Shown here piece by piece: positions 4,467 to 35,264 of a DNA stretch of 37,920 bases. A model generated the notes under the pieces. It was not told the origin of the DNA. It searched no databases and saw only the letters and a program-made list of their open reading frames with translations. A program made the position numbers and the translations under genes. Numbering within the stretch: position 1 is the stretch's first letter; each line of letters begins with the position of its first letter. Origin of the DNA: a virus (lineage: Duplodnaviria > Heunggongvirae > Uroviricota > Caudoviricetes); IMG/VR virus record IMGVR_UViG_2737471826_000005. One strand, written 5' to 3'.

Positions 4467-5347
4467 ACACTCCTCGTCAGTATTCTGGCGGCCATTGCAC
4501 TTAATCCCGGAGACATGCGGTTGAATGCTGTTCCGACGGCGTTAAGCTGCCCGGAAACGGTATCCAGAGCACCTGCAATATTTCTTTTGTCCACACCACT
4601 CAGCGCAGACTGTGCCTGCTGTACATACGTGGCTGCTTCGCTGGCTGTTCTGGCCAGACTGATGGCATCGGGCATGGATTCAGAGAGTGCGTTAAACGCC
4701 GGAACACTTTTCCCCAGAGCCCCGGAGATATTACCCAGTCCGCTCATCAGCCCCGGCACACGGGTCAGTGCGACAACGGGGTTATCCTTCATTTTCTGTG
4801 TCACCCGAACGGCGCTGATAGTGGTCTGGAGTACAGACTGCGCCTGTTTCGCATAGTTGACGCCGTTGCGGATGAACTGCGCCACCCCGGAAGGTGAAGG
4901 AATGGCACCGGAGACCGCCCCGACACCCGGGAGCTTCGTGCGTATTGCCGGTGGTTGCAGAGGATTTTTCGGGTCACCGGTGTATTCCCGGAGAGACACG
5001 GTGGCACTGACAGCCAGCACGTTGCCGGTACTGTCAGTCTGCTCGCTGGTTGCAGTCACATCGGTAATCACGAACCAGCCGCGATAGTCACCGTTGCCGA
5101 AGACCAGCGCCAGTGCCTGATGGGCTTTCATGGCTGTTCGCAGTCTCGCCAGCTCCACATCGGGTACACAATAATGCTGATGGAAAACCAGAGTTATCTG
5201 GATTTCGTCCAGCCTGTCGCCGACGAACTGCAGGCCAGGCTTACCCCCGATGCGGGCATGCTCCGCATAATCGACGCCGAACGTGGCCTCGAAGCCGTCC
5301 CAGTAGGTAATCAGCTCAAACTCAATATCACCCAGTACGGCAAACAT
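4463..5347 (-). CDS. tail protein, gpU-like N-domain with Ala/Ser/Gly-rich C-terminal extension
   Basis: 294 aa immediately downstream of tape measure; N-terminus MFAVLGDIEFELIT is gpU-like. Confidence 0.6.
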   Translation of the reverse strand: MFAVLGDIEFELITYWDGFEATFGVDYAEHARIGGKPGLQFVGDRLDEIQITLVFHQHYCVPDVELARLRTAMKAHQALALVFGNGDYRGWFVITDVTATSEQTDSTGNVLAVSATVSLREYTGDPKNPLQPPAIRTKLPGVGAVSGAIPSPSGVAQFIRNGVNYAKQAQSVLQTTISAVRVTQKMKDNPVVALTRVPGLMSGLGNISGALGKSVPAFNALSESMPDAISLARTASEAATYVQQAQSALSGVDKRNIAGALDTVSGQLNAVGTAFNRMSPGLSAMAARILTRSV

Positions 5348-8300
5348 CAGCGGTACTCCTTACGTTGTTTCTGAGCCAGCAGACGCTCCAGCATTTTTTC
5401 CAGCTCATGCAGACTCATATTCAGGGCACCAGTCAGTCCTGCAGGCGCTGTGGTTTCCCTGCCATTGAGGAAAAACTGAGGATTAAAGCTGACCTGGATA
5501 CCACCAGACGTTCCACCGCCGGTTGCAGCTGCACCACGGCCTGAATATCCGGCAGCCAGGATTTCAGGCGAGGGGATACGGGGAACATCCGGTGTCATCT
5601 CATTTGCCAGACGTTGCCCTGGTAAAATCGATGCCCGGGTGGAGAGCGGAATAACGGGCATGGAAGACAAACTATTGATTACGGCTCCGATCGCATTTTT
5701 AGCAGACGACATAAACCCATTGATATCGGGCAACGGCATACTGAAGCGAACACCTGAAGTGTTATCCCGTATTTCTGGCCCCTGAATGCTCACGGGCATT
5801 CTGGGGAGCAGTTCACTGGCCATTCGCTGCCCGGCCAGAGCTGCAAGCGGAGTGGTCCGCTGCAGGCCAATGGCGGCCCCCTGCGCGATATTGTCACCAA
5901 AGCCCATAAACACGCGGCTCGGCGAATGAATGCCCAGCTTTTCGCTGAACCAGCCACTGATGCTGTCACCCATTCCGGTTACACTGGATTTGAGCGACTC
6001 CCATTTGTTTTTGATACCGTTAATCAGACCGTCGACAAGATGGCCACCGAAGTCGGTGAACTTTGCCGGCAGATCAACACCAAGATATTTCAGCGCAGCT
6101 GCAAAGGCTTTATAGAGCAGACCTGCCGGCGACCAGTTAATCAGCAGCTTACCAGTTCCCGCGATACCGCCGTTAAAGGCTTCCTGAATGTCAGCCCAGC
6201 ACTGTTTAAACCAGCTACTGATGCTGTCACCCATTCCGGTTACACTGGATTTGAGCGACCCCCATTTGTTTTTGATACCGTTAATCAGACCGTCGATAAG
6301 ATGGCCACCGAAGTCGGTGAACTTTGCCGGCAGAGCAACGCCGAAATATTTCAGCGCAGCCGCAAAGGCTTTATAGAGCAGGCCTGCCGGCGACCAGTTA
6401 ATCAGCAACTTACCAATTCCCACAATGCCGCCGTTAAAGGCTTCCTGAATGTCAGCCCAGCGCTGTTTAAACCAGCTACTGATGCTGTCACCCATTCCGG
6501 TTACACTGGATTTGAGCGACCCCCATTTGCTTTTGATACCGTTAATCAGACCGTCGATAAGATGGCCACCGAAGTCGGTGAACTTTGCCGGCAGAGCAAC
6601 GCCGAAATATTTCAGCGCAGCCGCAAAGGCTTTATAGAGCAGGCCTGCCGGCGACCAGTTAATCAGCAACTTACCAATTCCCACAATGCCGCCGTTAAAG
6701 GCTTCCTGAATGTCAGCCCAGCGCTGTTTAAACCAACCACTGACAGCCCCCCAGTTGCGGTAGATAAGGTAAGCTGCTGTCGCGACAGCGGTGATAACGA
6801 GACCGATGGGATTCATCATCAGCGCTCGCCCAATCCAGAGAACGGCACGTGCAGCGCTCATAAAACCGCGAACGAGGCTGCCCGCCAGAACTTTGCTGAG
6901 TTTCAGTCCTCCGCTGGTCAGTCGGCTGAATCCAGTGACAAGCCAGCGTAATTTGCCACCTTCTCCGAGTGCGGTAGTCAGTCGATGCCAGTTGGTCCGG
7001 AGTAAAACAGTAGTTTTCCAGACGTTCACAAAGGGGGAAATAAGGAGATTCAGCCCCAGTTTGAGACCAATAGTCGCTATCTTAATCGCAAGGAGCGCAC
7101 TGATGAGCTTAAAAGCCCCACTGACAAATTGCGGGTGAGTCGCTACCCAGTGTTTTGTCCCCTGAATGAGTGGGAGCAGTTCCTGAGTCAGAGAAATAAA
7201 AGATGGAGCTAATTGATCGCCCAGCGTAATTGCCAGATCGCGACTGCTGACCATAAGTGTTTTAGTGGCTTCAAGGGGAGATTTCAGCCGCTGATCATAA
7301 GCACTGGCAAGCAAATCGTTATCCGCAGCCCTGAGAGCACCGGCACGGATCTCTCGATATCTGTCCATGTTGGCCAGCATCGGGCGGATAAATGCCATGA
7401 CCTGCATATCCGCGAACATATCGCCCAGACCAAAGTTTTTCGCCAGAGCCTGAAGTGCCTCATCTCTTGCCGTATCATTCTTTATTTTCATGGCTGATTT
7501 GAAGCCGGCCAGCGCTTCGGGGCTTTTGGCATTGAGGTAACGTTCTATAACACTCAACATCCCTTCAATCGGAGAGATCCCCGCAGCTTTATAACTCGCA
7601 ATAGATCCCTGCAAATCAATACCCAGATCAGCAAACTGTTTCTGAGTATCGCGGGCAAAAATTTTGGTAAGAAAGTTTTTAAAATTATTGGCTGCTTCGT
7701 CGGTGGAACCTGCACCGATTTTTGCTATCTGGAGACTGGCCCCGATTTCAGCAACAGCCTCTTTTCCACTGGCAAGACCCGCCATCATTGGGGCCAGGGA
7801 CTGCATCCACTTGACCTGATCCGGGATTTCAAATGACCCCTGGTCACCGGCATAAGCCATAATATTCTGAACGGCACCAAAATCTCTGGCCGCACCTTTC
7901 AGGGAGTTTTGCCAGACTGCGGCCACTTTTGCCCAGTCCTGAGCAGACGTGCGTGTTGCCGTTGCCGCGCGGGCAATATCCGGCATCAGAAAACCGATAT
8001 CTGACACATTATCAATATTGTCGCTGATGAGTGAACCCACCGCCTCCTGCAGCTCATCCTGATACTGATTGTATTTAAGCGCCCAGCCTTTTATCTGTCC
8101 GGCAAGTGCATCCCGCGTTTTATTGTCATATTTTGCGGTGATCGACATATCAATCATTTTGTCCTGAAAAGACATGGACTGCTGAACGGCAGGGGAAACC
8201 GTATGATAAACAGTCTGTGCCATGCCATACGCTTCAATCCCCTGACCATACAGCGCCATGCGGTTAGCTTTCAGCGCATCACTGGTAGCGGATGCCGCTG

Positions 8301-8559
8301 ACAGACGGCGCTGCTGGCGCTCAATTTGCTCCATGGTGCGGCTTACCCGCAGCAGCTCGCTGTTGAGATGCTGCATCCGGGAAGAACCCAGTTGACCATA
8401 ACGTTCTGTTGCACGGGTTAAAGCGTTCTGACGTTCCTGCAGGCGGCGTGAGGTATCGCTCAGGGAATCAAGCGCACGGCGGGTACCGCTCATTGCAGAA
8501 CGGAATGTGCTGCCAATCATCCCGCCGATAACAACGCCGACTGAAAACTGTCCCGACAT
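5347..8559 (-). CDS. tail tape measure protein
   Basis: 1070-aa ORF, GGAGG RBS, downstream of chaperone pair, internal 87-aa tandem repeats. Confidence 0.9.
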   Translation of the reverse strand: MSGQFSVGVVIGGMIGSTFRSAMSGTRRALDSLSDTSRRLQERQNALTRATERYGQLGSSRMQHLNSELLRVSRTMEQIERQQRRLSAASATSDALKANRMALYGQGIEAYGMAQTVYHTVSPAVQQSMSFQDKMIDMSITAKYDNKTRDALAGQIKGWALKYNQYQDELQEAVGSLISDNIDNVSDIGFLMPDIARAATATRTSAQDWAKVAAVWQNSLKGAARDFGAVQNIMAYAGDQGSFEIPDQVKWMQSLAPMMAGLASGKEAVAEIGASLQIAKIGAGSTDEAANNFKNFLTKIFARDTQKQFADLGIDLQGSIASYKAAGISPIEGMLSVIERYLNAKSPEALAGFKSAMKIKNDTARDEALQALAKNFGLGDMFADMQVMAFIRPMLANMDRYREIRAGALRAADNDLLASAYDQRLKSPLEATKTLMVSSRDLAITLGDQLAPSFISLTQELLPLIQGTKHWVATHPQFVSGAFKLISALLAIKIATIGLKLGLNLLISPFVNVWKTTVLLRTNWHRLTTALGEGGKLRWLVTGFSRLTSGGLKLSKVLAGSLVRGFMSAARAVLWIGRALMMNPIGLVITAVATAAYLIYRNWGAVSGWFKQRWADIQEAFNGGIVGIGKLLINWSPAGLLYKAFAAALKYFGVALPAKFTDFGGHLIDGLINGIKSKWGSLKSSVTGMGDSISSWFKQRWADIQEAFNGGIVGIGKLLINWSPAGLLYKAFAAALKYFGVALPAKFTDFGGHLIDGLINGIKNKWGSLKSSVTGMGDSISSWFKQCWADIQEAFNGGIAGTGKLLINWSPAGLLYKAFAAALKYLGVDLPAKFTDFGGHLVDGLINGIKNKWESLKSSVTGMGDSISGWFSEKLGIHSPSRVFMGFGDNIAQGAAIGLQRTTPLAALAGQRMASELLPRMPVSIQGPEIRDNTSGVRFSMPLPDINGFMSSAKNAIGAVINSLSSMPVIPLSTRASILPGQRLANEMTPDVPRIPSPEILAAGYSGRGAAATGGGTSGGIQVSFNPQFFLNGRETTAPAGLTGALNMSLHELEKMLERLLAQKQRKEYR
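5932..6735. repeat. three tandem copies of a 261-bp unit inside the tape measure gene
   Basis: Unit starts at 5950, 6211, 6472 (period 261); copies 2 and 3 nearly identical, copy 1 slightly diverged; degenerate fourth start at 6733. Confidence 0.9.
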
Positions 8560-14966: not shown

Positions 14967-15180
14967 TTTGCTGTCCCGCGTTATGTTGTCGGAGACAGTT
15001 TGTGAGAAATGCAGGCCCGGCGATTTTAATCTGCTTTAGAAAACATCAGGGGAGAAGGACAGGGAAAGCAATGCGGTGAACCGGAGGCGGTTATAAAACA
15101 GAGGCTGTAAAGCCTTTATAAAGGTAATACAGCCCCTCATTCGCTGGCAATGATAAATCACCCGCCTGAAGAGAGAAAAC

Positions 15181-22369: not shown

Positions 22370-22499
22370 GTGTGTCTCCTTGTCTGGTGGAGACAGCATC
22401 ACAAATACAGGGCGCGAAGGATTTTAAAGCGCGTTAAGAGAGCCGGGGATACGGGATGTGCAGGATAAACGATGAATTATTCACAGAGGAGAATACGAT

Positions 22500-23243
22500 A
22501 TGACGCAGACACTGAATCCGGTCATCACTGTCACCGTGTCCGGTCCTGTGGGCAGCGGTAAAAGTTACATATTGGCGCGGATAGAGGAAGTGGTGAAACA
22601 GGAATTCGGGGGCAGCGTCATTGTCGATGCTGCAGACGTAGATGATGAGCGGCGTATGAGTGGCGATGATCTGACGACCTGGCAGAAGCCACGGGGTGGC
22701 ACAGTGATCAGGCTGGAGGAATACACGGGACAGGGCCTGTTGTCATACGGCGAGGAGCGTATCTGTCGGACGAATGAGCTGCTGGATGTTATATGCCCCA
22801 CGGGCCGGCAACCCTGGATACTGCCCGATGCACTGCATGCCACCATTGCGGCACTGATGACAGTTTACGATCAGGAGCTGCTCATGAAGGAGCTACGTAA
22901 ACTCACCGGTCAGCCAACAGAATGTTTTTCTGCCCCGAAGTACGGGAAACAGGAACACATCCCGGTGAACACGCTCCCCGTTAACCAGCCTCCCCGGTTC
23001 TTCGACGAATACATTCTGACACCGGAAAATAAAGCTGAGCACGAAGAGATCAAAGCGGCGTTGTTCCGGGAAATCAGGAAGATTGCTGAAATGCAACTGG
23101 GGGGCGGGCTGGACAGAGTGATGGCGAGAGGAGAATGGGAGTCGCTGTTTGAAAGAGTTTCCCCGGAATTACTTCCCCTCGCACTGGCTATCGGGATTAT
23201 GCAGACAGCGGATAAACCTCACTTACGTTCATTAAACACGTAA
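22500..23243 (+). CDS. P-loop NTPase/kinase-like protein, unknown function
   Basis: Walker A GPVGSGKS at residues 15-22; GAGGAG RBS; no family assigned. Confidence 0.6.
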   Translation: MTQTLNPVITVTVSGPVGSGKSYILARIEEVVKQEFGGSVIVDAADVDDERRMSGDDLTTWQKPRGGTVIRLEEYTGQGLLSYGEERICRTNELLDVICPTGRQPWILPDALHATIAALMTVYDQELLMKELRKLTGQPTECFSAPKYGKQEHIPVNTLPVNQPPRFFDEYILTPENKAEHEEIKAALFREIRKIAEMQLGGGLDRVMARGEWESLFERVSPELLPLALAIGIMQTADKPHLRSLNT

Positions 23244-32587: not shown

Positions 32588-33029
32588 ACAACGTCTTATC
32601 CAGCTCATTCATATTGCCCGTAATGAACTGGGTATGGATGAAGACACCTACCGCCAGATGTTACAGGGGCTGACCGGTAAAGCCTCAACCAAAGGAATGG
32701 ATACCACACAACTAAACTGCGTGCTGGAATCCATGAAAAGGAAAGGCTTTCGCGTTAAGCCTGCCGGAAAAGCCAGCTCCGGTTTACCGCTGGATAACCA
32801 TCCGCAGTCCAGGAAAATCCGTGCGCTATGGCTTGAAATGGCTGCTGCCGGCATTGTTCGTGACCGTTCAGAAAATGCATTAGCGCGGTGGATCAAGCGG
32901 GAAACGGGCATCAGCGCCCTGCGCTGGCTCAGTACTGAACAGGCAAGCAGTGTTATTGAGAAACTGAAGAAGTGGCAGCGCAGAGCTGCGGGAGTCAAAC
33001 ATGAGCGACCTGAATCAGTTTCGAAGTAA
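32577..33029 (+). CDS. GemA-like protein (Mu gp16 family)
   Basis: Position immediately upstream of mor; RLIQLIHIARNELGMDEDTYRQ motif. Confidence 0.65.
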   Translation: MMTKQRLIQLIHIARNELGMDEDTYRQMLQGLTGKASTKGMDTTQLNCVLESMKRKGFRVKPAGKASSGLPLDNHPQSRKIRALWLEMAAAGIVRDRSENALARWIKRETGISALRWLSTEQASSVIEKLKKWQRRAAGVKHERPESVSK

Positions 33030-33399
33030 AGGGCCGGAACTCCTGGTGGAGCTGGCACAGCATACCTCTGAGACCGTTCGCGAGATTATTGATATTGAGC
33101 CCGCAATTGCCGACCAGATTGGTCAGGCCGTCGCGAACCGAATGATGCAGGTCTGGGGCGGGCAAAACGTTTATTTCCCGATGGGCATGGTATGGAAGGT
33201 CAGTCAGCGCGACCGGGAAATCTTCAGGGAGTTTAACGGACGCAACCACCACGAACTGGCCCGCAAGTTTGGTGTTTCGCTTCAGTGGGTCTACAGCGTG
33301 GTTAAGCGGGTCAGAAAAGAAGAACTGGATCGGATGCAGGGCAGGTTGTTTGATGAAGATCTGCCAGAGGAGACGAAAGACGTTAACAAATCCAGATAA
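33001..33399 (+). CDS. mor: Mor/C-family transcription activator
   Basis: C-terminal FNGRNHHELARKFGVSLQWVYSVVKRVRK matches Mu Mor NDFNGRNVSELTTRYGVTFNTVYKAIRRMRR. Confidence 0.85.
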   Translation: MSDLNQFRSKGPELLVELAQHTSETVREIIDIEPAIADQIGQAVANRMMQVWGGQNVYFPMGMVWKVSQRDREIFREFNGRNHHELARKFGVSLQWVYSVVKRVRKEELDRMQGRLFDEDLPEETKDVNKSR

Positions 33400-33442
33400 T
33401 TCCTGCTTGTTAAAGTCCTTTCAAAAATCTCCTTATTGTATA

Positions 33443-33477
33443 AAAGCACGGTAGACCCCTTACCGTGCTTTTTTTAT
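33443..33477 (+). terminator. rho-independent terminator after mor
   Basis: AAAGCACGGTA / TACCGTGCTTT stem, 7-nt loop, T7 run. Confidence 0.8.
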
Positions 33478-33513
33478 GCTCTCTCTTTAGTATTCAGGAT
33501 GCAGGGAGAAAAT

Positions 33514-33948
33514 ATGTTTGACGTTTCGTTGTTAAATCTGCCATGGGCAACACTGGTGACCCTGACCAGTGGCTATATTGGGTATTTTATTGCGAATGTG
33601 GGACTGAAGGATCACCACAAGCCCATTGAGGTGACTTTTTCTTCGCTGATTTTTGGCCTGACAGCAATGATGGCTTACCAGGCTGTTATGTGGGCAGGTC
33701 TGAATGCCTGGCTGGCAACACCACCAGCACTTCTGTGTGCCGTTACATGCGGTGCGTGGTGGCGCAGGTACGGTCGCAAATGGATGTACAGATTACTGTG
33801 GAATAATGATATTTCATGGTCTGACGATACCAGCTCAGCATGGCAGGCAATGTTTGATCAAACAGGCTTCAGCGTTACCGAGGTCAGAGTGATTCTTCGC
33901 GATGGTTCCGGTATGATGTCACGGCTGCCAGGGAACTTTGAAGAGTAG
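33514..33948 (+). CDS. three-TM membrane protein; reading frame continues past an in-frame TAG to 34146
   Basis: GGAG RBS before ATG 33514; three hydrophobic segments; TAG at 33946-33948 followed by 66 further in-frame sense codons. Confidence 0.5.
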   Translation: MFDVSLLNLPWATLVTLTSGYIGYFIANVGLKDHHKPIEVTFSSLIFGLTAMMAYQAVMWAGLNAWLATPPALLCAVTCGAWWRRYGRKWMYRLLWNNDISWSDDTSSAWQAMFDQTGFSVTEVRVILRDGSGMMSRLPGNFEE

Positions 33949-34496
33949 CCTAACGGTCCGTTTACCCTGGGGAATAAAGGCGATATGGTTCTTTACGTCA
34001 CGCACAGCAGCCCTTCAGGCAGTAACGAATGGGAAGAGTATAAAGGCGTGGTTGATAAGTACTGGGGAGCTCTGGCAACCTATATTCCAGCAGATCAGAT
34101 TGCCAGAGTGGAGATCAGGCGCGTTCGTGCAACGAACGATGAATGATGTTTATTTTTTCCCTGGGGCAGGGGCTGCCGGCATAGTGGTTTTATTGGCAGA
34201 GGAAGACGATTCTCCTTTTCTACCGGAATCGCGCTCGAACGTCACGATGTGCTTGCTTTTGGGCTTTTCTGAGTAATCCAGGCTATCATGCTTATTGTTT
34301 TGAGTAGTCATTGGAATCATCCTTTTTGTTGCGGGTCATGTTTCAGCAAACTCGATTCTAAGTTGCCAGGAAGGATGATTTCAATGCCCGACTTATCTAT
34401 CGTATAGCGGAAAAGAATTTCAGTTCTGTTCACCAGAACCCATGTTAACCCACTCCAATTCGTTATTTATCTCACGGATCCCCCTTCATTTATCTC

Positions 34497-35264
34497 ATGT
34501 CTGATCATCTGGGCTTTCGTTCGTCACTGCTGCAAGCGAGCTTTAACTACGAAAGGATGCAGGCGGGCGGTTTTACCTGGGCGATGTTGCCGATCCTGAA
34601 AAAGATTTATAAGGACGACAAACCGGGCCTAAGCGCGGCGATGAAAGATAACCTCGAATTTATTAATACCCACCCGAATCTGGTCGGATTCCTGATGGGG
34701 TTATTAATTTCGATGGAAGAAAAAGGAGAAAACCGCGACACCATTAAAGGCCTCAAAGTGGCACTGTTTGGCCCAATCGCCGGGATTGGCGATGCGATTT
34801 TCTGGTTTACCTTATTGCCGATTATGGCGGGAATTTGCTCATCATTTGCCAGCCAGGGAAACTTGCTGGGGCCGATTCTATTTTTCGCCGTTTACCTGCT
34901 TATCTTCTTCCTGCGCGTCGGCTGGACCCACGTCGGTTATTCAGTCGGCGTGAAGGCGATCGATAAAGTGCGAGAGAACTCGCAGATGATTGCTCGTTCG
35001 GCAACCATCCTCGGGATCACGGTAATCGGCGGGCTGATCGCTTCGTATGTGCATATTAACGTGGTGACATCGTTTGCCATCGACAGTACCCACAGCGTCG
35101 CGCTGCAGCAGGATTTCTTCGATAAAGTCTTCCCGAATATTTTACCGATGGCCTACACCCTGCTGATGTATTACTTCCTGCGGGTGAAAAAAGCGCATCC
35201 GGTGCTGTTAATCGGCGTGACGTTTGTTCTTTCTATTGTTTGTTCTGCATTCGGCATTTTGTAA
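34497..35264 (+). CDS. agaD: PTS N-acetylgalactosamine-specific IID component, 5'-truncated/altered by prophage insertion
   Basis: Body of protein matches AgaD as I recall it, but N-terminus MSDHLGFRSS replaces native MGSEISKKDITRLGFRSS. Confidence 0.8.
   Translation: MSDHLGFRSSLLQASFNYERMQAGGFTWAMLPILKKIYKDDKPGLSAAMKDNLEFINTHPNLVGFLMGLLISMEEKGENRDTIKGLKVALFGPIAGIGDAIFWFTLLPIMAGICSSFASQGNLLGPILFFAVYLLIFFLRVGWTHVGYSVGVKAIDKVRENSQMIARSATILGITVIGGLIASYVHINVVTSFAIDSTHSVALQQDFFDKVFPNILPMAYTLLMYYFLRVKKAHPVLLIGVTFVLSIVCSAFGIL

Follow-up and report, generated by a model that had tools for sequence, protein, structure and literature searches.

A membrane-protein gene at the end of a BcepMu-like Escherichia coli prophage is very probably interrupted by a private nonsense mutation

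In the BcepMu-like phages (Bcepmuvirus: BcepMu, phiE255 and PhiKM) the early operon ends with GemA and Mor near the end of the phage, and in BcepMu and PhiKM mor is the terminal gene, about 180-365 nt from that end. The prophage in the window, by which we mean the whole stretch of 37,920 nt analysed here, is of this type. Its early-operon order is the same, and the transposases of Escherichia phage PhiKM and BcepMu (gp09) are 98% and 68% identical to its own, respectively. It adds a pair of convergent genes, here called X and Y, and because BcepMu and PhiKM end after mor, a segment of about 1 kb (roughly 33400-34440) has been inserted here, with mor on one side and the terminal repeats on the other. 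Two other kinds of described system come close to X. Prophage morons with inner-membrane exclusion or abortive-infection proteins are represented by lambda RexB, P22 SieA, HK97 gp15 and T4 Imm. Like these, X is the gene of a small membrane protein that the phage can do without. A terminator insulates it, and it likewise sits at the prophage end or at a head/tail junction and is patchy among close relatives; X differs in having no sequence or profile similarity to them and in the conserved convergent small ORF alongside. MscS has three transmembrane (TM) helices, an N-terminus outside, a C-terminus inside and a cytoplasmic beta domain that is classed as Sm-like (SCOP, MscS structure), and the architecture predicted for X, three TM helices and a cytoplasmic Sm-like domain, is similar to that of MscS-type channels. 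In the window, X is very probably a single gene that is broken by a stop codon.

In ABU 83972, rstB is interrupted by a prophage that shares 99.45% identity with the window prophage over 34.5 kb. The end of the window prophage lies at 34507; its identity with the copies in two other genomes extends up to this point, and agaD sequence comes next. The terminal segment (34465..34507, no strand assigned) carries the direct repeat ATTTATCTCA twice and ends in ...TGATCA before the host agaD, and the last 40 nt of the prophage are homologous to the PhiKM end. The host context of the near-identical prophage ends is different in each genome examined (agaD here, rstB, and the inside of a P2-like prophage), as would be produced by a transposable phage. 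Mor-X loci were recovered from Citrobacter, Serratia, Salmonella diarizonae, Symbiopectobacterium, Pantoea persica, Arsenophonus, Phlomobacter and some 30 IMG/VR contigs. The order Tnp-MuB-...-GemA-Mor-X was found in every Enterobacterales locus recovered, with X identities down to 34-60% among these loci, and the order Mor-X-Y-end is present in Citrobacter, Serratia, Salmonella, Symbiopectobacterium and other genera. The search of phage DNA with the region gave no match, and the search of phage proteins with X returned only Synechococcus phage Ssp-JY41, in which a protein of 30% identity is encoded at the genome end.

The gene mor (33001..33399, plus strand; Pfam PF08765 Mor, E 1.1e-43) encodes a Mor-family late transcription activator, named 'Mor transcription activator family protein' by RefSeq in identical copies, and is the last early-operon gene of this BcepMu-like transposable prophage. 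The terminator scan placed a terminator-like hairpin with a 13-bp stem and a T-run between mor and X (33442..33472, plus strand). This hairpin contains a perfect 12-nt inverted repeat; it is the same in two Serratia loci and similar in Citrobacter and Salmonella, and in other genera its place is taken by a different hairpin, again with a T-run. Gene X (33514..34146, plus strand, 210 codons), as delimited by RefSeq, PHROG, homologs and dN/dS, has a GGAG ribosome binding site, read from the sequence, 5 nt upstream of its ATG (33505..33508, plus strand). Its frame runs through 144 codons to a TAG at 33946-33948, continues with 65 sense codons and stops at the TGA of 34144-34146. The earlier note had described a terminator-insulated gene for a three-TM protein at the prophage end, interrupted by an in-frame amber codon, and this description was borne out: the ribosome binding site, the ATG at 33514, both stop codons and an internal ATG at 33985 that opens a 53-aa ORF are all present, three hydrophobic helices were recognized by inspection and in the AlphaFold model, the hairpin follows mor, and the prophage ends at 34507. 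As to transcription, the search for Mor-dependent promoters showed that two late intergenic regions have TCCCC-N18-20-TTAAAATC in common. Upstream of X, ACCCC-N15-TATGCT lies inside the terminator hairpin and weakly resembles this late intergenic motif, and a weak sigma-70 candidate, TAGACC-17-TATGCT, matches at 8/12 positions.

The relatives of X indicate that the frame on the two sides of the TAG belongs to one gene. In AR_0085 and ABU 83972 the intact gene is annotated by RefSeq as a 633-nt CDS (WP_000460689.1, 210 aa) with bounds matching 33514-34146. This 'hypothetical protein' of Enterobacteriaceae, also PHROG 12870, is X itself, from which the window copy differs only by Trp145>stop; with Trp145 restored, X matches PHROG 12870 over residues 1-210 of 210 (E 6.3e-134). 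The homolog search with X gave 72 clusters at 90% identity, nearly all of 204-219 aa with full query coverage, together with some fragments. An exhaustive profile search extended the family to 520 clusters at 50% identity (430 with E<=1e-10), most of them of about 200-220 aa and covering profile positions 1-205. The earlier note had proposed to look whether homologs are uninterrupted across the TAG, and they are: none of the 35 aligned sequences, which reach down to 32% identity, is broken at position 145, and the downstream frame carries a coding signal. In this alignment G148, G153, D157, Y161, T163, G185, I196 and R202 are invariant and P146, H164 and P192 nearly so, all of them downstream of codon 145, and position 145 itself is variable. 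By the Nei-Gojobori method, comparison of the window with four diverged X copies gave a dN/dS of 0.09-0.21 upstream of the TAG (codons 1-144) and of 0.13-0.27 downstream of it (codons 146-210). An open run of 65 codons would arise by chance with a probability of about 4%, (61/64)^65, but the homologs and the dN/dS values show that codons 146-210 are truly coding, under purifying selection in the same frame. By these comparisons X is one gene, and its TAG neither a recoding signal nor a gene boundary.

The interrupted allele itself is rare. Of 5,426 complete E. coli genomes searched by megablast with positions 33400-34450, 133 contain the region, 91 of these at 99% identity or more. Compared with AR_0085 and ABU 83972, the sole mismatch in 1051 nt is position 33947, which is A here and G there. 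A 61-nt probe centred on the TAG recovered 121 copies in 114 complete E. coli genomes, none of which matched perfectly. The exact intact 210-aa sequence of X is found on at least 1000 contigs, and the exact 144-aa product on two, of which only that of SRR2239608 ends at the stop codon; this contig matches the window without a difference for 6435 nt and has the same agaD insertion. The other contig (L004) was considered as a second carrier of the TAG and was rejected, its allele being intact and cut by the contig end (...GAGTG). Because of the single mismatch, the absence of a perfect match among 121 copies and the one stop-terminated read set, the TAG allele is private to this isolate or its lineage. 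It is known from a single isolate or read set, and there is a small probability that it is a consensus base error.

Our preferred explanation, which we consider very probably correct, is that X is in this prophage a single gene with a nonsense mutation. A recent G>A transition at 33947 in this lineage would have turned the Trp145 codon (TGG) of X into the premature TAG (33946..33948, plus strand), and the gene would be a pseudogene here, interrupted at codon 145. This was one of three options of the earlier note, and it is supported by the privacy of the TGG>TAG change and by the relatives, all of which have X intact and without interruption. The truncated protein of 144 residues would keep the membrane helices and lose most strands of the Sm-like domain together with the eight invariant residues, and owing to this loss it could hardly fold and would most probably be non-functional. 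Judged from conservation and the structure model, the TAG allele is most probably a loss-of-function allele. The three-TM stub might keep some activity, and low-level natural read-through of UAG would yield some full-length X, in which any residue inserted at the variable position 145 would probably be tolerated. The ORF of 53 codons from the internal ATG (33985..34146, plus strand), which corresponds to the C-terminal residues 158-210 of X and is not a gene, would be the orphaned tail.

Broken copies of X also occur elsewhere, and they raise the question whether the loss was selected. Further disrupted copies were retrieved via lookup of the 53-aa ORF, and among them were W145* through TGG>TGA in ERR14106515, E144* (GAG>TAG) in SRR36257362 and S136* (TCA>TGA) in ERR11812668, so that E. 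coli has four nonsense alleles in codons 136-145 (the window, L009, L010 and L013). These alleles are independent, since they affect different bases in different allele backgrounds. Two broken alleles differ from the reference by 7-8 synonymous changes, including codons 153 and 169, and by at most one amino-acid change besides the stop, and this mostly synonymous divergence therefore points to constraint on the full X frame. Three NCBI assemblies (L005, L006 and L008) have several indels of 1-2 nt in X, which are probably long-read errors, and frameshifted or fragmentary copies were found in Bradyrhizobium and Phlomobacter (L034-L038) and also on Bradyrhizobium plasmids. A sub-case of the preferred explanation would be adaptive inactivation, in which loss of X was favoured because the intact protein is costly or toxic to the host. 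The four independent E. coli alleles and the broken copies in Bradyrhizobium, in Phlomobacter and on the plasmids are compatible with such selection, and holin-like three-TM proteins are often toxic, though the holin fold matches of X are weak. We nevertheless regard adaptive inactivation as improbable. That the alleles cluster in codons 136-145 is a matter of ascertainment, because gene callers emit the 53-aa ORF only for stops between Met134/135 and Met158; they call it only in genomes with an upstream break in X or on contigs that begin inside X, and a nonsense hotspot at these codons was rejected accordingly. The intact gene, moreover, is present on at least 1000 contigs and is under purifying selection, and a few broken copies among thousands are expected from neutral decay of an accessory gene. 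Recurrent nonsense mutations in X do not demonstrate selection for its loss.

A sequencing or assembly error, with TGG as the true base and X intact in this strain, is less probable still. The privacy of the allele, which is absent from the 121 other E. coli copies, and the record of its stop-terminated product from one read set only are compatible with such an error, as are the other broken public copies (L005, L006 and L008) with indels that resemble long-read errors. The change in the window, however, is a clean single-base substitution and no homopolymer indel, the independent Logan assembly of SRR2239608 has the same base within its 6435 identical nucleotides, and real nonsense alleles of X (W145* through TGA, E144* and S136*) do arise elsewhere on different backgrounds.

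Functional recoding is very improbable indeed. In that case the UAG would be read through by design and X would be made on purpose in forms of 144 and 210 residues. The frame is open for 65 codons past the TAG, and a read-through product would probably work because position 145 tolerates many residues. However, the only stop at codon 145 among the relatives is the independent TGA allele of one read set, and the near-identical copies that were checked have TGG, so the read-through or suppression site that the earlier note had also considered has no conserved stop behind it. The scan for a suppressor found no tRNA gene within the 37,920-nt window, and Rfam gave only chance-level matches on 33300-34600, none below E 0.5. 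That the downstream frame is still open follows from a very recent mutation, the only difference in 1051 nt. Just as improbable are two genuine small genes, a 144-residue membrane protein and a 53-residue gene from the ATG at 33985, which the earlier note had listed as well and for which gene callers provide the split annotation of this genome (WP_244462203.1 and WP_244462204.1) and the sequence a weak AAGG 4 nt upstream of that ATG: no homolog ends at residue 144 besides other nonsense alleles, residue 158 is Met in close E. coli alleles alone, most homologs having Ile, Val or Leu there, so that the start codon of the small ORF is not conserved, residues 146-157 between the two would-be genes hold the invariant G148, G153 and D157, purifying selection continues downstream, and both pieces form one folded domain in the AlphaFold model.

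The structure of X was modelled with AlphaFold from the 35-sequence alignment, with a mean pLDDT of 84.5. The model contains TM helices at residues 11-27, 37-60 and 65-97, a short helix at 109-115 and a beta-rich domain at 119-205. Basic residues are located in the loop 28-36 (KDHHK) and after helix 3 (RRYGRK), from which we infer, by the positive-inside rule, that the N-terminus is outside and the C-terminal domain cytoplasmic. This cytoplasmic domain appears, on the model, to have an Sm/LSm-like fold: it consists of an N-terminal helix and a strongly bent five-stranded beta sheet and superposes on Sm domains, and in the Foldseek comparison of the model with the PDB the Sm-like family ranked first, with a probability up to 1.0 and an E value of about 0.08. 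X differs from the known proteins of the Sm/LSm/Hfq fold by its three-TM membrane anchor, by an insertion between strands and by the lack of detectable sequence similarity, and the PDB sequence search with the X family profile gave only chance-level matches (best E 0.6). Homology to MscS was rejected: the hhalign probability was 0.1 and PF00924 matched neither X nor its relatives. Because this profile comparison was negative, the likeness to MscS is an architectural analogy only. Against the viral fold library the model had one significant match, to an uncharacterised protein. Matches to holin folds were weak (E 0.05-0.6) and probably reflect the TM bundle only. A holin was taken to be a protein of about 70-150 aa with mainly TM helices and an endolysin neighbour; X lies away from the lysis cassette and carries in addition some 110 residues of soluble domain, and this identity was rejected. 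In the near-identical prophage of ABU 83972, holin and transglycosylase are annotated far from X, at a place equivalent to about 21.3-22.4 kb in the window.

Pfam gave no match to X at E<=1, DUF6338 included, and no usable match to Y, and NCBIfam gave none to either protein. DUF6338 (PF19865) did match 19 of the 35 X family members weakly (best E 8.5e-6), and X appears weakly related to this family, yet it is no formal member, being below the Pfam gathering threshold. The two are similar in size (about 200 aa), and the DUF6338 matches point to an N-terminal membrane part and a soluble C-terminal part, as in X. DUF6338 itself is uncharacterised and is mentioned in passing in one paper.

Gene Y (34150..34311, minus strand; RefSeq WP_001571575.1; PHROG 15726, E 1e-41) is a small hydrophilic ORF of 53 aa that is convergent with X, their stop codons being 3 nt apart in a tail-to-tail arrangement; an alternative ATG at 34320 would give 56 aa. 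This gene of the X cassette had been overlooked in the earlier note. The promoter scan predicted a sigma-70-like promoter for Y (34355..34384, minus strand; TTGAAA-18-TAGAAT, 10/12 matches), which is flanked by a 16-nt inverted repeat (34309-34324 and 34371-34386). As there is no terminator between the convergent genes, the transcripts of X and Y may overlap. In 12 of 14 genome loci a Y-like ORF of 40-66 aa abuts or overlaps the 3' end of X with a gap of -20 to +7 nt, and such an ORF is also present in nearly all viral X loci with enough flank. Y-like ORFs occur in Enterobacterales and in Alphaproteobacteria (Bradyrhizobium, Afipia, Devosia and Rhizobiaceae), where X is 36-46% identical. The enteric versions have MTxxNNxxDxxDYSExPK in common, and most versions of both groups end in a proline-rich C-terminus of the TPTT...PxPPxKK type with terminal lysines (…PAAPAPGKK, …TPTTNERPSTPPPSPKKK). 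An obligatory toxin-antitoxin pair was considered for X and Y and was rejected, because X is intact where Y is frameshifted, as in one E. coli allele group (L044), or deleted, as in the Arsenophonus/Pantoea persica lineage (L027 and L028).

The pair is not confined to the Mor-X loci. In distant, unrelated alphaproteobacterial prophage contigs (L079 and L080) X-Y is located between head and tail genes, and it adjoins recombinases in L031, L033 and the Rhodobacteraceae plasmid CP081163. In Afipia a serine recombinase (resolvase) gene precedes the pair, and Abi_alpha is encoded two genes past Y; in Devosia the pair adjoins the gene of a DUF4145 protein and in a Rhizobiaceae MAG a Dam methylase. 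Since X-Y is absent from the functional relatives BcepMu and PhiKM, it is accessory, and since the same pair recurs in unrelated prophages and beside recombinases, it behaves as mobile and moron-like. As far as its distribution goes, X-Y behaves as a moron or accessory cassette of about 1 kb, and this mobility fits a function that benefits the lysogen without demonstrating one.

For the function of the pair we can offer tentative proposals. X would oligomerise via its Sm-like domain into a membrane-anchored ring at the inner membrane. This ring would act for the lysogen, e.g., by exclusion or abortive infection or by modification of the envelope, with Y as a partner or regulator. Such a ring with an exclusion, abortive-infection or envelope role, and Y as partner or regulator, is possible but doubtful. 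Still more doubtful is the fuller proposal that X-Y is an undescribed two-gene module of temperate phages, in which X forms a membrane-anchored Sm-like ring of a minimal MscS type with three TM helices in each subunit, Y is its small, convergently transcribed partner with a tail of prolines and lysines, and the module protects the lysogen by exclusion or abortive infection or alters its envelope. A role in exclusion or defence is a guess from context, namely the moron behaviour of the cassette and the Abi_alpha and DUF4145 genes that are sometimes near. The PADLOC-DB 2.0 defence models gave no family at E<=1 for X or Y, and the literature search found no paper on protein X or the X-Y cassette.

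For annotation, the 'hypothetical proteins' of 144 aa and 53 aa should be corrected to one pseudogene. The finding itself is of little weight: an accessory gene of a prophage carries a nonsense allele that is private. A modestly interesting by-product is the X-Y cassette, which would combine a three-helix membrane anchor with an Sm-like domain and is widely distributed (520 clusters at 50% identity) in Mu-like and other prophages of Gamma- and Alphaproteobacteria. Should X-Y turn out to serve in defence or exclusion, the strain would offer a natural X-null control in which Y is intact.

Gene Y, a small hydrophilic ORF on the minus strand at 34150-34320 of the window, encodes 40-66 aa across the loci compared, and its conservation reaches from Enterobacterales to Alphaproteobacteria. 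Y and gene X, the three-TM membrane-protein gene, are convergent in the window, in L015, L018, L023-L026 and L029-L033, and in many of L047-L084, with the stop codon of Y adjoining or overlapping that of X. The C-terminus of Y is a proline- and lysine-rich motif (...TPTT..E..PxPPxKK). A candidate sigma-70-like promoter of Y, separate from X, is found on the minus strand at 34384-34355, and the promoter and start region are flanked by a 16-nt inverted repeat with 94% complementarity (34309-34324 and 34371-34386), which could be an operator. Following Y on the same minus strand is an ORF of 156-183 aa (6789-7313 in L031; 6791-7342 in L033; 6802-7272 in L015), which is conserved in Afipia and Bradyrhizobium and contains ...FDDLPLGGFFM.... 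No Pfam match was obtained for this ORF in the three loci, and it may be a third member of the X-Y cassette in Alphaproteobacteria.

Independent nonsense alleles of X were present in the E. coli read-set assemblies L009, L010 and L013, namely S136* (TGA), E144* (TAG) and W145*, the last of which was made by TGA, not TAG. The clustering of these alleles at codons 136-145 is an ascertainment effect. The X copies of L005, L006 and L008 carry multiple small indels, which look like long-read errors. An extra small gene of 80-95 aa lies between X and mor, the gene of the Mor-family activator, in other allele groups of the prophage, L041-L044 (3663-3905) and L018 (5690-5977). The window copy lacks this gene, so what occupies the position behind mor varies.

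Ahead of late operons on the minus strand, the two intergenic regions at 22403-22520 and 14967-15180 of the window share TCCCC(G/T)G-N18-20-TTAAAATC; they are possible Mor-dependent late promoters for the BcepMu-like phage group. Alignment of the window with the prophage of E. coli ABU 83972 revealed internal repeats at 5948-6743, about 96% identical at an offset of 261 nt, within a minus-strand ORF of 1070 codons (5347-8559) whose position suggests that it encodes the tail tape measure protein. At 17-200 of the window there are also repeats, about 184 nt long, that match several sites among the tail-fibre sequences of the ABU prophage.

The prophage terminus carries two direct copies of ATTTATCTCA, 23 nt apart (34465-34474 and 34488-34497), which probably mark transposase-binding sites. 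The terminal 11 nt of the prophage (34497-34507) contribute an in-frame ATG at 34497 that reads into the truncated host agaD, giving an ORF of 255 codons (34497 to 35264) in which codons 1-3 and two bases of codon 4 are phage-derived; an AgaD shortened at its N-terminus could thus have a chimeric start here. Among near-identical copies (window, L001, L002, L006, L009, L011 and L041-L044), the host DNA at the 34507 junction differs per genome: the neighbour is agaD in the window, rstB in ABU 83972 and the interior of a P2-like prophage in E. coli AR_0085, and in other genomes the prophage end adjoins fimbrial, TonB-receptor and BMC genes. Such differing host DNA beside near-identical prophage ends indicates that an active BcepMu-like phage has recently transposed in, or infected, E. 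coli.
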